Positions 3,418 through 14,900 of a stretch of DNA of 20,000 nt are shown one piece after another. This DNA is from an uncultured virus (IMG/VR IMGVR_UViG_3300042691_022988) (lineage: Duplodnaviria; Heunggongvirae; Uroviricota; Caudoviricetes), in the IMG/VR virus record IMGVR_UViG_3300042691_022988; one strand, given 5' to 3'. Position numbers and translations under genes: made by a program. The notes under the pieces are model-generated. The model had not been told where the DNA came from and ran no database searches. It worked only from the letters and a program-made list of their open reading frames with translations. Position 1 is the first letter of the stretch. The number at the start of each line of letters is the position of its first letter.

Positions 3418-4440
3418 ATGAAAAATAACGTACAAAACTATCGCAACGTACTCAACGATACTCGCGATATAAGCCAAAACAAAAAACTAGAAGAGGAGTG
3501 GAATAAGGCTGAAACCGGGTCTAATCTACAATCTTTTAAAAGAGGTTTCCTGGCGTGGAAGAAAACAAACTCACACAAGGAGCCGGTGAAAAAAGCACGA
3601 TTTAAACCACAAGCAATTGTAAATGCGTTCGAGGATATCATTAATGAGCTGATTCCCGACAGTAATCCATTGGGTCTCCCAGACTCAAAGGAAAACAAGT
3701 ACAGCCCGTATAAATTTCCAACTAATCATAATGATATCCTATTTCTCACCGACATTCACGTACCATATCACAACATTGCTGCCGTCACAGCTGCACTCAA
3801 GTACGGTCTTGAAAATGAGGTCAACACAATCTACATTAACGGGGACCTCATCGACTTCTACGCAATCAGCCGCTTCCAAAAGGATCCGCGAAAAAGGGAC
3901 CTCGCCTCGGAAATCTACATGGCAAGAGACTTCCTCTACACCCTGCGACGATTGTTCCCTACACAAGCAATATACTTCAAAGCAGGAAACCACGACATCC
4001 GTTGGGACCACTATTTAATCAACAATGCCTCAGATCTTGTGGGGATTGAAGAGTTCTCATTGCAATCCATTCTTCACTTGGATAAACTGAACATCACGTT
4101 TATTCCAGACAAACAACTTGTTAGAATGGGTAAGCTAGTAGCCCTTCATGGGCATGAGTTTGGGTCAAGTATGTTTAGCCCAGTAAACATTGCCCGTGGT
4201 CTTTATCTTCGAGCCAAGGATAACGCTATCTGCGGACACCACCACCAGACGTCGGAGCATACCGAGCCAAACATCAACGGAAAGGTAACCACCTGCTGGT
4301 CGGTAGCTTGCCTTTGTGAGCTGCATCCGGACTATATGCCAATTAACAAATTTACACACGGATTTGCACACGTCAAAGTGTTTGATAATGAAGACTTTGA
4401 GGTGACAAACTACCGTATCGTGGATGGTAAGATTAAGTAG
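3418..4440 (+). CDS. Calcineurin-like metallophosphoesterase
   Basis: All five motifs present: TDIH, GDLIDF, GNHD, HGHE, GHHH. Confidence 0.85.
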   Translation: MKNNVQNYRNVLNDTRDISQNKKLEEEWNKAETGSNLQSFKRGFLAWKKTNSHKEPVKKARFKPQAIVNAFEDIINELIPDSNPLGLPDSKENKYSPYKFPTNHNDILFLTDIHVPYHNIAAVTAALKYGLENEVNTIYINGDLIDFYAISRFQKDPRKRDLASEIYMARDFLYTLRRLFPTQAIYFKAGNHDIRWDHYLINNASDLVGIEEFSLQSILHLDKLNITFIPDKQLVRMGKLVALHGHEFGSSMFSPVNIARGLYLRAKDNAICGHHHQTSEHTEPNINGKVTTCWSVACLCELHPDYMPINKFTHGFAHVKVFDNEDFEVTNYRIVDGKIK

Positions 4441-4519
4441 TCACTCGTAACATTTTTGTGCGTGTTTTTGTTACGAGAGATGTGCGTTTTTTTCTGTATT
4501 TTGCATAACGGGATGTGCA

Positions 4520-7319: not shown

Positions 7320-7481
7320 TTATTTTACCTTAGTTGTCCTCATCATCAACTGTCTTTTTGGACCAGATGTAGAGACCTTGGTTGTCTTCATCATTAATTG
7401 TTTTTTAGGAGTTGATGAAGAAACTTTTGTGGTCTTCATCATCAACTTTTTCTTTGGGTCTGGTTGATTTTTCTTGATCAT
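7320..7481 (-). CDS. 53-aa basic protein with three internal repeats
   Basis: MIKKNQPD-PKKKLMMKTTKVSSST-PKKQLMMKTTKVSTSG-PKRQLMMRTTKVK*; ATG is 1 nt after the upstream stop. Confidence 0.7.
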   Translation of the reverse strand: MIKKNQPDPKKKLMMKTTKVSSSTPKKQLMMKTTKVSTSGPKRQLMMRTTKVK

Positions 7482-9402: not shown

Positions 9403-9523
9403 AAAAATCATAATACCAGGATGGTTGGGAAAATCGTTGACCAACTAGGGTTGGGGTCACCCCCCCCGGCAGGCGGTTACGCGACCCGACCCGAAGTCGA
9501 TTTGGCAACAGGGGTGGGGTACT

Positions 9524-9708
9524 TAACACCCTGATTTGCAGCCTGTTATGCCACCAAGGCCAACTGCTTGACCCTCAGGTAGATATAGCACACAGCACAC
9601 AGCCCGATGCGCGGCAACTTGTCTCCGCTCGGTGGAGAAAGTAGACTAACCCATTGATAATCAACCCGTTTGCATAAACGTCACAACGTGTTAAGTATCA
9701 GCACGTTA
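9524..9708. repeat. Three 25-bp quasi-palindromes containing IHF-like sites
   Basis: TAAC-ACC-CTGA-TTT-GCAG-CCT-GTTA (9524-9548), TAAC-CCA-TTGA-TAA-TCAA-CCC-GTTT (9647-9671), CAAC-GTG-TTAA-GTA-TCAG-CAC-GTTA (9684-9708). Each has WATCAR-N4-TTR on one strand. Confidence 0.6.
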
Positions 9709-10242
9709 CACCATGCATGACCATGCCCGCTAGATACTGCAAGCACCCCGCCCGATGCCCTAGAAACCACACGGCCTGAACGCCTGAAAACCCCGCCATT
9801 CCTGAGAACCATGCAAGGCTCGGAAATTCTGCTTGGGGTAACCTAGATTGAGTTGGCCTAATGTGCGGGCGTGCACGAGTGCTTTATGTGCTCTCTCTCC
9901 TGTCTCTTGGTGTGTGTGTGTTATTACATAGGGTGGATTGTGGGTTATTTGCCCGCGCATGGCCTGTCCTTTGCCTGCTGTTTGGCTGTCCTGTTTTACC
10001 CTGTCTGATGTCTCCTGATTGCTCACCTGTAGACCGCTTCCCAGGACGCATACGCTTTTTGTTGATTTTCGCTCTCAAACCCGCGCTGTGCCTGTCCTAG
10101 AGAACATCTGATGCTGTTTTTGGGTTTTGGCCTGTTTCTACCCCTGTTCACCCCCTCCCCTAGCTGTGAGAAACGCCCATTTCTGACTATTTCCCGCCGG
10201 CCTGAATCCCTTGTCCTACGCGGCTTTCAGCACCATTGCTTA

Positions 10243-10273
10243 CAAAGATAGTCAATGTTTTCGCGGCTTCCAA
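10243..10273 (-). promoter_or_regulatory. Leftward Bacteroidetes promoter reading into the non-coding region
   Basis: Minus strand TTG-20 nt-TATCTTTG (10243-10250). Confidence 0.6.
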
Positions 10274-10295
10274 GAAATAACGTAAAAAAGATTAA

Positions 10296-10350
10296 AATTC
10301 GTCGATGATAAATTATAATTCGTCGACACTTTTTGTCAGTTAGGCGAATT
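10296..10350. repeat. Direct repeat AATTCGTCGA x2 (21-bp period) plus an inverted half-site
   Basis: Copies at 10296-10305 and 10317-10326; CGAATT at 10345-10350. Confidence 0.6.
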
Positions 10351-10458
10351 TATTGCCTTTGGCTGTAATTCAGTTATTGGATAGACGTGGCGCGGGTTTC
10401 AAAAAAGCAAATCTCTGAACACCGCATAAACACAGGTCGTTTAGAAGGTCTTTAAAAC

Positions 10459-10491
10459 TTGATTTAGAACTTAGATATCCCCTTATCTTTG
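10459..10491 (+). promoter_or_regulatory. Putative major early promoter
   Basis: TTG (10459-10461) and TATCTTTG (10484-10491); heads the long + strand gene array. Confidence 0.75.
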
Positions 10492-10496
10492 CCACC

Positions 10497-10971
10497 GTTC
10501 AACGGAACAACGGAGTGCTCAAATCACCCGCAATAGTAATACCTCGTGAGACGTGTGAAATTGAAAGATAGCTAGCAGTTCTGATTCCCTCTCTGCAACA
10601 ATCAAAAGAGGGTGAGCGCTTAGGCAACGAAGCGACGGGAGTTCGCCCGCAAATAGCCGACAACATTCGGCAACCTGTCAGTAGCAAGGTTAGGAGCTAC
10701 AGGTTAAACGAACGAGAACCCTGCAAATAGCAGGGGACTACAAAAGCCGAGTCTTGGGACTATACGCGGTGACCCCTAACGGGAGAGCGGATGAGTACAG
10801 CGGTAAACAAGTAGCACAGCTATGCGTATGTGACAACGTATGGCTGTGTGTATCAATACTACAGCGCAACGGCGCAAATTCAATACAACTATAGCAACGA
10901 CGCATGGTGCGGCAAGCCTAGATGACTGAGGTCGCTAGTCTCGCAGGGGGTTCGAGTCCCCCCGTTGTTCT
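10497..10971 (+). ncRNA. Candidate ~470-nt structured non-coding RNA or leader
   Basis: No + strand ORF in the track. Consecutive hairpins at 10587-10612, 10617-10634, 10636-10649, 10656-10671, 10672-10705, 10719-10735 and 10815-10848. 5' GAACAACGG (10505-10513) is complementary to 3' CCGTTGTTC (10962-10970). Confidence 0.6.
10893..10970 (+). ncRNA. tRNA-like structure 1 (non-canonical, no true anticodon arm)
   Basis: Acceptor AGCAACG/CGTTGTT; mini D-arm CGCA-TGG-TGCG; long arm closed by a TGAG loop; T-arm GGGGG-TTCGAGT-CCCCC; no CCA. Confidence 0.7.
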
Positions 10972-10991
10972 AACACTTAAAACACAACATC

Positions 10992-11471
10992 ATGAACATG
11001 ACAAAAGGCACAGCCTTCGAAGTTGAAATCTTCAAGCAAATGAACTTATCACAGGAAGTAATTGAGCAGCACATATACGACTATGCGCCAATCATGAAAC
11101 TGATACCGCTCACAACTGATGAAATCAGGGAACAGGGTAGAGACTACAACCCTAGAGAATGGGACAGGGTCATTGACAGGATGCTCAACTACAACGGTAT
11201 CAAGTGGTTCAAACGTGACAGGAACGAGAGTTCAAACGGCTACGATGAGTACTTCGCGGTATTCAGCAACAGCGCAGGCGTCAAGGTAATCAATCACGTG
11301 TCATACAGCGCGTCCATGACCAACACTCCGTGGGTCGAGGTTGCTATCGACGAGGACAACATCCTGCACTACAACCGCCGCTCAATTCGCTTCAAGCGCA
11401 ACGACGAGGCTAGGGACTACCTAGCAGAGCAAAGCAAGACAAGCGGTCGCATCTACACGACAATCTTCTGA
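10992..11471 (+). CDS. Early hypothetical protein
   Basis: 159 aa with an A/C-rich leader; its stop TGA abuts hammerhead 1. Confidence 0.8.
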   Translation: MNMTKGTAFEVEIFKQMNLSQEVIEQHIYDYAPIMKLIPLTTDEIREQGRDYNPREWDRVIDRMLNYNGIKWFKRDRNESSNGYDEYFAVFSNSAGVKVINHVSYSASMTNTPWVEVAIDEDNILHYNRRSIRFKRNDEARDYLAEQSKTSGRIYTTIF

Positions 11472-11523
11472 GGTTAACTGATGAGACTTCAATAGTCGAA
11501 ACTGCCTACGGGCAGTCTTAACC
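11472..11523 (+). ncRNA. Type I hammerhead ribozyme 1
   Basis: GGTTAA-CTGATGA-GAC-TTCAATA-GTC-GAA-ACTGCC-TACG-GGCAGT-C-TTAACC. Full catalytic core; GUC cleavage after 11517. Confidence 0.93.
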
Positions 11524-11532
11524 AATAGCAAT

Positions 11533-11694
11533 ATGAAAGCAATCCAATCCCTCGCATCATTCGCAATGGTGCTGTTCTTTTTCCTGAGCACGATAGTCGC
11601 GCCAATGGCCGGCATTTGGTTCTTACTGCCGCTGACTATCCTGTGCCTGAACCTGAGCCTGAACCTATTCGTTCAAATTCATAATTCCAAGTAA
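11533..11694 (+). CDS. 53-aa two-TM membrane protein (missed by the ORF track)
   Basis: MKAIQSLASFAMVLFFFLSTIVAPMAGIWFLLPLTILCLNLSLNLFVQIHNSK*; fills the gap up to ATG 11696. Confidence 0.7.
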   Translation: MKAIQSLASFAMVLFFFLSTIVAPMAGIWFLLPLTILCLNLSLNLFVQIHNSK

Positions 11695-11695
11695 C

Positions 11696-11887
11696 ATGAC
11701 TGAGAAATTCTACTTCCGCAAACTAGGCGGTTGGCCGTTCGAAATGGAGGCCACAATCAACGATGGCCGCCACCGAGCAAACTTCCTAGCGGCCATGAAG
11801 CGCAAGCGTTTCATACAGGTCGACGAGGCCGAGTACATCAAGGACAGCAGACTGCGCTCGATGTACGCATCAATGTTCCACAAGTAA
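11696..11887 (+). CDS. Early hypothetical protein
   Basis: 63 aa, coupled to the upstream stop. Confidence 0.7.
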   Translation: MTEKFYFRKLGGWPFEMEATINDGRHRANFLAAMKRKRFIQVDEAEYIKDSRLRSMYASMFHK

Positions 11888-11906
11888 TCAATAAACAGTA
11901 ATCGAT

Positions 11907-12233
11907 ATGACAACACAAGAATTCATTCAGCAAATGGGCAAGATGCCTGTTGCAAACTACAACGACGGCACAATTCACTTCGAGAATGGCCTCGAAATCA
12001 GCCACAGCGTTAAGCTAGCAGAATGGCAAGGCGACTTGCCTCTGCAAATGGTCGTGCGGGTATCTTTCCAAGGCGACTACGTTATGACGTGGGGCGCTGA
12101 GACTGACGAAGACAATCGACAGCTAGTGTATATGTGGCGCACGTTGAAAAGCCGCGCACAGGAGCGTTCAAAGGACATACAGCAGTACAACTCCCGTACA
12201 GGTTACGAACTGCTCATGAAGGGGCTGCAATAG
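11907..12233 (+). CDS. Early hypothetical protein
   Basis: 108 aa; its stop TAG overlaps hammerhead 2. Confidence 0.8.
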   Translation: MTTQEFIQQMGKMPVANYNDGTIHFENGLEISHSVKLAEWQGDLPLQMVVRVSFQGDYVMTWGAETDEDNRQLVYMWRTLKSRAQERSKDIQQYNSRTGYELLMKGLQ

Positions 12234-12291
12234 GTAAACTGATGAGGCTTCAATAGCCGAAACCACGGGGCTTGCCCCTGTGGTCTTTACC
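12233..12291 (+). ncRNA. Type I hammerhead ribozyme 2
   Basis: GGTAAA-CTGATGA-GGC-TTCAATA-GCC-GAA-ACCACGGGG-CTTG-CCCCTGTGGT-C-TTTACC. GUC cleavage after 12285; stems covary with copy 1. Confidence 0.93.
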
Positions 12292-12303
12292 AATACTAAC
12301 GAT

Positions 12304-12588
12304 ATGAAAGCAACAATCGAAATCACGTCGACCTACGGGTTCGACCACTATTGGACACTAGTGTGTTCAACACCTAAGACAACCAAGAGTTTCTACCTAG
12401 GACAGGACTGCAAATTCTGCGAACGAATACTAGGTATGAATACTGCGTGGGTTGCCCGCGAGATTGGCACGAACAGGCTCGACACCGAGGCAGGCCGCGA
12501 GAAACTAGCCAAGTACATCTGCTCTACGCTAGGCATCAACGGACGTACAATGAAACAATATCAATCATGGTCGCTCTGCGCCCAATAA
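12304..12588 (+). CDS. Early hypothetical protein
   Basis: True start is likely ATG 12304 (MKATIEIT...), because the GTG at 12280 lies inside the ribozyme. Confidence 0.8.
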   Translation: MKATIEITSTYGFDHYWTLVCSTPKTTKSFYLGQDCKFCERILGMNTAWVAREIGTNRLDTEAGREKLAKYICSTLGINGRTMKQYQSWSLCAQ

Positions 12589-12600
12589 ACCAACAACACC

Positions 12601-12855
12601 ATGTTACACAACGAGCATCTAAGCAAGGCGGATGAACTATACGAGGTTCGCCACGACAACAACGGCAACGCTATCCATGTATTCATCAAGGACGGCGAGG
12701 CAATCATCTTTCAGAACCTGCATGACTTTGTCATGAGAATCTATTACGGCAAAGAGGTCGAGCGATTCTACCTCAGCGAAGAGGAACTGACCGATATGTA
12801 CAATAGCAACGATTACGAGTATTACGAACTAAAATCAAAATACAGCCATGAGTAA
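12601..12855 (+). CDS. Acidic early protein
   Basis: 84 aa with an A/C-rich leader. Confidence 0.75.
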   Translation: MLHNEHLSKADELYEVRHDNNGNAIHVFIKDGEAIIFQNLHDFVMRIYYGKEVERFYLSEEELTDMYNSNDYEYYELKSKYSHE

Positions 12856-13150
12856 CATTGAAAGATTCGCACGCATATGCAGTGCAACCAACGAGGGCAT
12901 GAATGAGGGCTTCCTGTTCGAAGAGAGCCTCATGTACTTCATCGAGAAGGACGATGCCGAACGCTACGCCATCGAGATTGGCTACGCTGACCTTGACGAG
13001 GCATACGACGACGATGCCTACTGCTACACGGAGTGGGATTGGGAAGACGAGGGTGAGTGGTACGAGAAGCACGACGGAGTATGGTACGAATGTACCAACG
13101 ACAGCAAGGTCGAAGTTAACATGAACAGCAACCTATTTTGGAAACAATAA
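12848..13150 (+). CDS. Highly acidic early protein (DNA-mimic candidate)
   Basis: 27 D/E versus 7 K/R in 100 aa; aromatic-rich. Confidence 0.75.
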   Translation: MSNIERFARICSATNEGMNEGFLFEESLMYFIEKDDAERYAIEIGYADLDEAYDDDAYCYTEWDWEDEGEWYEKHDGVWYECTNDSKVEVNMNSNLFWKQ

Positions 13151-13151
13151 C

Positions 13152-13436
13152 ATGAAGACAAAGCAAATCGTCGACGCGTACGTTAACGCTATCAACTCCG
13201 GAATTTGGGACTATCCCAATGGCCACGAGTTCAACAGCCCTGCTGAAATCTACAAGCTAGTGTGCGAGGGTAAAACAATCTACCACTTCGGACGCGAGGC
13301 CGTGATACACTACGGCTCGATGACGGGTGCGCTGATGGCATTCGGTGGCATCGGGTACACTTCGCAGTCAACTCGCAAGGCAATTAGAACAGCAGTATTG
13401 TATGCTCAGAAAGTAAGTCAAACCAATAACAACTAA
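13152..13436 (+). CDS. Early hypothetical protein
   Basis: 94 aa, coupled. Confidence 0.75.
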   Translation: MKTKQIVDAYVNAINSGIWDYPNGHEFNSPAEIYKLVCEGKTIYHFGREAVIHYGSMTGALMAFGGIGYTSQSTRKAIRTAVLYAQKVSQTNNN

Positions 13437-14605: not shown

Positions 14606-14787
14606 AGCACACACTTCGAATTGAGCCACTCCTTTGGCTCGCCTACATCGCTGCAATCATTACAGCAGCCGTACTCATGAGTTCATGCAGTACCTCACGT
14701 CGAAACAACTACCAAGACCATCTCCGATCGACCCCGACTGAAAACTGGGTGCGCCACGATAATGGTGGATGTGGTTGGCACAACTAA
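14602..14787 (+). CDS. Small putative lipoprotein
   Basis: Hydrophobic stretch followed by a lipobox-like LMSSC; ATGA overlap. Confidence 0.65.
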   Translation: MKHTLRIEPLLWLAYIAAIITAAVLMSSCSTSRRNNYQDHLRSTPTENWVRHDNGGCGWHN

Positions 14788-14830
14788 CATGGCTATGGAG
14801 CAAGCAGGGGTTCGAGTCCCCTGCCATGTT
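14787..14830 (+). ncRNA. tRNA-like structure 2 (44-nt acceptor plus T-arm minihelix)
   Basis: ACATGGC/GCCATGT 7-bp acceptor; TATGGAGCAAGC linker; AGGGG-TTCGAGT-CCCCT T-arm; begins at the upstream stop codon. Confidence 0.7.
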
Positions 14831-14862
14831 CTCTGCTCACAGCAGGCTCGTAATGCAACGAG

Positions 14863-14900
14863 AGGAGGGGAGCGGCAACGGCTGCACCCTCCTTATTTTA
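14863..14900 (+). terminator. Possible terminator or structured element
   Basis: AGGAGGG...CCCTCCT followed by TATTTT. Confidence 0.4.

Follow-up and report, generated by a model that had tools for sequence, protein, structure and literature searches.

In prophages, multiple hammerhead ribozymes flank genes and cleave in vitro and in vivo in Escherichia coli, and the 2011 report by Perreault et al. describes clustered phage hammerheads around short gene blocks, proposing messenger RNA (mRNA) processing as their role (PMC3088659). A 2019 review calls the processing of polycistronic transcripts by bacterial and phage hammerheads "suggested" and its purpose in need of more work (PMC6765202); in the open-access literature we found no recent dedicated study of phage hammerhead function. 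Here we describe two hammerheads, HH-A and HH-B, in a 20,000-nucleotide (nt) stretch of DNA (the window) from an uncultured virus of the Caudoviricetes (IMG/VR record IMGVR_UViG_3300042691_022988). Both lie on the coding strand, between small co-directional genes of a phage operon, and they flank a block of three genes (11533-12233), the copies being 761 nt apart. We consider it likely that HH-A and HH-B are active-looking intercistronic cutting sites in a long early or middle phage transcript, whose cleavage in vivo and effect on expression we infer.

The arrangement recalls the clusters of 2011, in which several close hammerheads with consensus cores flank genes or short blocks of varying identity, with a proposed cutting into gene-length mRNAs (PMC3088659). 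The window likewise carries two coding-strand hammerheads, one on either side of a short run of phage genes. The hammerheads tested in 2011 were mostly of type II or mixed and came from prophages of Agrobacterium, Azorhizobium and Clostridium, whereas the copies in the window are type I and belong to a freshwater phage. The same source describes HHphage, a hammerhead of the haloviruses HF1/HF2: it precedes a start codon of an early polycistronic transcript by 13 nt (15 and 18 nt here), and its cut site coincides with a mapped 5' end; unlike our copies, it has a variant core, needs high Mg2+, belongs to an archaeal virus and sits at the head of the transcript (PMC3088659). Type I hammerheads just upstream of an open reading frame (ORF) are also described in RNA mycoviruses, where self-cleavage promotes translation initiation (PMC13725137). 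That setting is the eukaryotic, cap-independent translation of RNA virus genomes, and no bacterial counterpart is known to have been demonstrated.

The two ribozymes and their parts occupy the following positions of the window.
11472-11523, plus strand: HH-A, type I hammerhead, predicted cut between 11517 and 11518
Parts of HH-A: stem I 11472-11477/11518-11523, core 11478-11484, stem II with its loop 11485-11497, GAAA 11498-11501, stem III 11502-11515, U16.1 11516, C17 11517
12233-12291, plus strand: HH-B, type I hammerhead, predicted cut between 12285 and 12286
Parts of HH-B: stem I 12233-12238/12286-12291, core 12239-12245, stem II with its loop 12246-12258, GAAA 12259-12262, stem III 12263-12283, U16.1 12284, C17 12285

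Judged by their sequence, HH-A and HH-B are genuine type I hammerheads. The core C3-U4-G5-A6-N7-G8-A9 is present as CTGATGA at 11478-11484 and 12239-12245, and both copies have G12-A13-A14, the A15.1-U16.1 pair and a non-G H17 at the cut. The pairs next to the core are standard in both (G-C closes stem II, A-U closes stem I), and the topology is that of type I, with stem I open, stems II and III closed by loops and the strands in the expected order. HH-A reads GGTTAA/TTAACC in stem I, GAC(T)-TCAAT-(A)GTC in stem II and CTGCC-TACG-GGCAG in stem III; HH-B reads GGTAAA/TTTACC, GGC(T)-TCAAT-(A)GCC and CCACGGGGC-TT(G)-GCCCCTGTGG. The copies thus differ by one compensated pair change in stem I and one in stem II, and by a stem III that is unrelated in sequence yet paired in both. 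The minimum-energy fold of each is the three-way junction (z-scores of -3.4 for HH-A and -3.1 for HH-B), with a stem II of 4 base pairs (bp) closed by the pentaloop UCAAU. The leaders after both cuts are short and fold as unstructured, and the start codons at 11533 and 12304 lie 15 and 18 nt past the cuts. The bare core pattern, which matches twice in the window, is not significant alone (22 of 200 shuffles gave at least two matches).

A covariance model, R1, was built from 53 phage relatives. It scores HH-A, which is in the training alignment, at 75.0 bits (expectation value E 3.5e-18) and HH-B, which is not, at 63.8 bits (E 3.8e-15). The invariant core, the predicted cut positions after C11517 and C12285, the start spacing and the compensatory stem changes were all put forward in the original prediction; the sequence reads as described there, and folds, covariation and R1 scores bear out two type I hammerheads with compensatory stem changes. 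R1, run unfiltered, found no further hammerhead in the window, where its next-best match reached 8.8 bits. The R1 match at 10100-10152 was ruled out as a third hammerhead: it lacks the GAAA core.

The two copies belong to a subfamily that reaches well beyond the window. An exact search of viral contigs with the stem II-loop word CTGATGAG-N-CTTCAATAG-N-CGAAAC gave 119 loci (86 distinct copies), and leaving the 7 loop letters free added at least 125 loci; TTCAATA is the commonest of 67 loop words among the matches listed (16/131). Among the 207 distinct pattern hits, two of which are HH-A and HH-B themselves, 181 could be parsed as full type I hammerheads whose stem I has 6 bp; the remaining 26, which did not parse, have other topologies or are chance matches. 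The subfamily is therefore large, with at least 181 distinct phage copies, and many loci carry two or three hammerheads inside 1-2 kilobases (kb), for example L019, L137 and L009. Among 53 members of equal length, 99.6% of cells are paired and 12 of 16 pairs vary on both sides, counts that are partly circular because parsing required pairing in stems I and III, the figure of 181/207 being less biased. None of 500 shuffles attained the observed covariation score, and slid controls were 30-37% paired.

The exact word occurs 3 times in the genomes of 185,579 species, and we conclude that phages are the main home of the subfamily. Just one of these occurrences is in the genome of an isolate, Mucilaginibacter gynuensis (contig L260, 130508-130772). 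This hints at Bacteroidota hosts and agrees with the few Shine-Dalgarno words in the window, where such a word precedes 5 of 35 genes; on that count the host looks poor in Shine-Dalgarno sites.

Routine annotation gives a different picture. Rfam 15 had no match in the window at its gathering thresholds. Below threshold, the sole ribozyme match was RF03152 (RAGATH-1-hammerhead), which needs 56.3 bits and scored 31.1 and 26.9; RF00163 (Hammerhead_1) did not match the window copies at E<=10, and searches for other ribozymes in E-value mode gave chance-level matches only. Both families belong to the same ribozyme class, RF00163 being type I as well, and the window copies fall below both thresholds. 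Across the subfamily, none of 20 members passed the gathering scores (best RF00163 score 31.7 against 34). An abundant phage subfamily of type I is thus missed by Rfam 15, and its members will escape routine annotation.

Conservation extends beyond the core. An A precedes stem I in 98% of members, the distal stem I pair is G-C in about 90%, C17 is present in 164/181, and the first A after stem I is found in 92% and the next A in 70%; the flank C-A-A is conserved. In loop II, position L1 is U in 176/179 members, L3 is A in 167/179 and L5 is U in 150/179. L5 and the first flank base combine as U-A in 149, A-U in 9, G-A in 11, A-A in 4 and otherwise in 6 (n=179, a sample biased by the search patterns and uncorrected for relatedness), which hints at a tertiary pair between them. 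To the original prediction, the identity of loop II and the 3' flank between the copies suggested a conserved tertiary contact. Family-wide conservation and the L5-flank covariation point to a real feature of the family and hint at such a contact, but the wider flank ATA is not conserved: as a family feature, ATA after CCA was rejected, positions 3-4 after stem I being only 38-39% A. Pairing of loop II with the start-codon region in a Watson-Crick pseudoknot (UUCA/UGAA) was considered and dropped as well, the start region being unconserved in the family. A seventh stem I pair is possible in only 8/181 members, and the median duplex energy of stem I is -4.1 kcal/mol; a weak stem I fixed at 6 bp fits product release after the cut.

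Position relative to genes was compared with random control sites taken from the same loci. An open upstream frame ends within -12 to +10 of stem I at 62 of 67 hammerhead sites, against 303 of 1212 random sites, and an ORF-opening ATG lies at most 45 nt from the cut at 54 of 67, against 510 of 1212. From cut to ATG the median is 25 nt, which puts the leaders in the window at the short end. The genes around HH-A and HH-B are as follows (lengths in amino acids, aa).
10992-11471, plus strand: 159-aa gene upstream of HH-A, its TGA stop (11469-11471) adjoining stem I; from the ORF list
11533-11694, plus strand: gene A, 53 aa, hydrophobic, first of the three-gene block; from the ORF list
11696-11887, plus strand: second gene of the block, 63 aa; from the ORF list, with a homologue in L247
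11907-12233, plus strand: 108-aa gene, third and last in the block; the G that completes its TAG stop is also the first base of HH-B stem I
12304-12588, plus strand: gene B, 94 aa, downstream of HH-B; from the ORF list

These data fit a simple sequence of events. Each ribozyme would fold during transcription, from the stop codon of the preceding gene, and would cut itself constitutively after C17. The upstream RNA would be left ending in a compact ribozyme with a 2',3'-cyclic phosphate, and the downstream RNA would open with a 5'-hydroxyl (5'-OH), followed by an unstructured leader of just 15 or 18 nt, the 6 weak pairs of stem I letting the two products separate. The block 11533-12233 would be freed as its own mRNA, and neighbouring cistrons may then differ in stability and translation. 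The property under selection would be the cut itself and not any particular downstream start sequence. RNase III sites between the early genes of phage T7 and the ribozyme insulators of synthetic biology, such as RiboJ, likewise combine an intercistronic cut with a clean 5' leader and a structured upstream 3' end; the T7 cut needs a host enzyme and RiboJ is engineered, whereas the cut in the window would be natural and made by the RNA itself.

The same intercistronic slots can hold another kind of element. In the related loci L245 and L246, which carry homologues of the 159-aa gene (82-83% identity), a tRNA-like minihelix of about 44 nt begins in the stop codon of that gene, that is, in the HH-A slot, and ends about 15 nt before the next ATG. 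L245 has a second minihelix, which places one gene between two of them, much as the three-gene block of the window lies between hammerheads, and in one run contig the 3' half of a minihelix-type element is joined at 11529, directly before gene A. Minihelices were sought with a script requiring a T arm and a 7-bp acceptor stem, which found 14 distinct ones in 284 kb and none in 5 shuffles. They consist of the acceptor stem, a conserved linker (YAUGGWGCAAG) and the T arm, sit about 15-30 nt before start codons, and have acceptor stems in four fully complementary, covarying forms. A larger tRNA-like element of 74 nt lies before the first gene of the window operon, with a 7-bp acceptor stem (AACGACG/CGTTGTT), a small arm, a long arm and a T arm whose stem covaries (GGGGG/CCCCC, CGGGG/CCCCG, GGAGG/CCTCC); ARAGORN calls no tRNA there, and at E<=5 the element is without a match in Rfam. 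The tRNA-like elements are as follows.
14787-14829, plus strand: window minihelix, acceptor stem and T arm, same family as the slot minihelices of L245 and L246
Minihelices in other loci: L245 3485-3528 and 4021-4064; L246 2109-2152; L247 814-857 and 4126-4168; L049 2221-2262; L250-L256
10896-10969, plus strand: 74-nt tRNA-like element, separated by 22 nt from the first operon gene downstream
The 74-nt element in five related loci: L245 2903-2976, L246 1528-1601, L247 303-376, L248 668-741, L049 1021-1094

With two hammerheads and two tRNA-like elements, the window operon appears to be punctuated by two kinds of RNA-processing signal. We tentatively suggest that the gaps separating small early genes of this phage lineage are punctuation slots, which may stay empty or be filled interchangeably by a hammerhead or by a minihelix of about 44 nt that host RNase P or RNase Z presumably cuts. 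That L245 and L246 have a minihelix in the HH-A slot speaks for "cut the transcript here" as what selection maintains. Cutting of such minihelices is proposed by analogy with RNase P model substrates, and host enzymes cutting a tRNA-like hairpin would leave a 5'-phosphate. An analogue is provided by the t-elements of plant mitochondria, tRNA-like signals that form mRNA ends (Forner et al. 2007, PMC1920247); they act in an organelle, not in a phage, and for the phage minihelices RNase P and RNase Z are putative enzymes. We found no tRNA-like processing signals in phage mRNAs in the open-access literature.

Several observations weigh against HH-A and HH-B as intercistronic cutting sites. A contig from an RNA library (X19) bridges the HH-B cut site (12207-12464), which is uninformative on cleavage either way, and at contig level (one contig each from X19 and X20) the runs show no pile-up of molecule ends; runs X17 and X18 are probably DNA. 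Part of the pairing evidence is circular, as noted above, and host-enzyme cutting of the minihelices would hold by analogy. The ribozymes are also dispensable: a 100%-complete relative has one hammerhead and a 95%-complete relative has none, and genes A and B occur without ribozymes (L248 and L247). The R1 counts in five related records (1, 0, 1, 1 and 1) indicate that the element is optional and comes and goes among close relatives. In L246, the HH-B copy (4391-4454) has CCGATGA in place of CTGATGA (U4 to C). The same copy also has a G-U pair in stem III, and it may be weakened or decaying.

The elements could matter chiefly as DNA, their conserved words of 25-32 nt serving as homology patches for the exchange of gene cassettes, swapped, inserted or deleted between co-infecting phages in the scenario proposed, with RNA cleavage secondary. 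Homology to the window halts exactly at 11469 in two loci (L245 and L246) and exactly at 12295 in three (L246, L247 and L105), and run contigs join two different upstream sequences at 11470/11471. The ribozyme of L049 is a chimera with stems I and II of HH-B and the 14-nt stem III of HH-A, L009 equals L011 plus one unit of leader, gene and hammerhead, and the colinear match ends 1-4 nt from the ribozyme edge in 19 of 26 one-sided pairs. However, if matches need not be adjacent, both flanks are still common to 32 of 45 related pairs within 1 kb; BLAST passes through similar hammerheads and so shifts apparent breakpoints to their edges; and phage mosaic joints sit at gene boundaries anyway, the breakpoint set comprising ribozyme-bearing boundaries only. 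The perfect catalytic core and the stem covariation, moreover, show selection on RNA. We regard a primarily DNA-level role as unlikely. The idea that the elements are recombination points, raised in the original prediction, survives in part: homology does break at hammerhead edges and a chimeric ribozyme exists, but mosaicism at gene boundaries gives much the same picture, and recombination is plausible as a side effect rather than a function.

That prediction had centred on a reusable module in which ribozyme, leader and translation start travel together, giving the downstream gene a decay-resistant 5'-OH end and a freed leader. The sequence ATATGAAAGCAA does follow both ribozymes, occurring exactly twice in the window, without mismatches, at those two sites; the downstream proteins are indeed unrelated (no BLASTP alignment between the products of genes A and B), and both leaders are short and unstructured. 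The apparent scarcity of Shine-Dalgarno words (5/35 genes) means that leader structure could matter. The nearest published parallel is the mycovirus type I hammerhead, whose self-cleavage in the 5' untranslated region is described as essential for translation initiation (PMC13725137). The relatives point the other way. In L247, from a 100%-complete relative of 66 kb, the homologues of genes A and B each lie directly behind another gene, ribozyme-free, and that of gene B opens with the same ATGAAAGCAACAATCGAAATCAC; in L248, the gene A protein is 100% identical to that of the window and starts with TAATATGAAAGCAATCC, again without a ribozyme. Since the start words are kept in these ribozyme-free loci, the shared 12-mer belongs to the genes and not to the ribozyme. 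Only 3 of 170 family members, two of them the window's own, have ATGAAAGCA after the ribozyme, and across the relatives, a small sample here, start sequence and ribozyme are not linked.

HH-B instead keeps company with the gene upstream. In L247, L105 and L246 its homologue stands behind that of the 108-aa gene, with a different gene next in line, and by this arrangement the 108-aa gene and HH-B move as a unit. Ribozymes resembling HH-B occur also in L155 and L156, short loci in which the ribozyme alone was compared. A 5'-OH protecting the downstream RNA is weakened as an explanation by the minihelix that can fill the same slot and would give no such end. A portable ribozyme-leader-start cassette is accordingly quite improbable.

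Cleavage could instead be conditional, a terminating ribosome keeping stem I and the core unfolded so that cutting reports translation of the upstream gene. The upstream stop codon does fall at one of five offsets in 116 of 179 members, namely 0 (30 members), +1 (33), +4 (6), +6 (14, where the frame stops within the final three bases of stem I) and +10 (33, where the UGA of the core is itself the stop); in the window the offsets are 0 for HH-A and +1 for HH-B. The same pattern is explained by the tight packing of phage genes, though, and the allowed offsets are simply those at which a stop codon fits the ribozyme consensus. Among alternative folds none is prominent, extended folds having z-scores of only -1.4, and we hold ribosome-gated cutting to be very unlikely. 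That the motifs are inactive relics or chance look-alikes is hardly credible, for although no Rfam family attains threshold, presence among relatives is optional and one relative (L246) has a core change, both cores are perfect, compensatory changes run between the copies and across 53 relatives, the R1 E-values are 1e-15 to 1e-18 and the Rfam miss holds subfamily-wide (0/20).

The rest of the window is that of a phage, with genes for a primase/helicase, a metallophosphoesterase, a Cas4-like exonuclease and NinB, and its DNA is also present in freshwater metagenomes. Pfam and PHROGs give no family for the six genes around the ribozymes; 10900-13200 has no blastn match in the phage GenBank collection, and the nearest record, G001, does not match 11400-12400. 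Upstream of the operon, about 1.5 kb (9445-10990) between divergent gene blocks is without a convincing ORF. Within it, facing sigma-70-like promoter matches (10292-10319 on the plus strand, 10339-10312 on the minus strand) surround a repeated TTCGTCGA word, and the stretch looks like a control region. The plus-strand match is the following.
10292-10319, plus strand: sigma-70-like promoter match TTAAAA-16-TATAAT, a consensus match only, which could drive the operon
Promoter-like sites in the region are not above chance (8, against a mean of 7.1 in shuffles). The noncoding stretch 10594-10999 is 97.8% identical to L247 (1-408), the neighbouring genes being only 67-90% identical, and could represent a conserved leader RNA with the 74-nt tRNA-like element at its end. 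The window minihelix is followed by a terminator-like hairpin (about 14858-14895), and a minus-strand gene region carries three tandem 48-nt repeats (7327-7470; 77% and 67% identity to the first copy).

Clustered phage hammerheads and their proposed processing role were already known (PMC3088659), and the two copies alone add little. What is new here is that the cassette idea fails and that hammerhead and minihelix appear to be equivalent occupants of one slot in relatives. Relatives that differ only in how a slot is filled, by a hammerhead, a minihelix or nothing, may help as matched natural constructs for the effects of the cut, suited to asking whether the flanking genes change in stability or translation because of it. 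If the punctuation slots are real, they would amount to a natural swap experiment, showing that phage hammerheads are selected for cutting as such and not for end chemistry or the downstream sequence, and the elements that fill them would double as boundaries for gene-cassette exchange.

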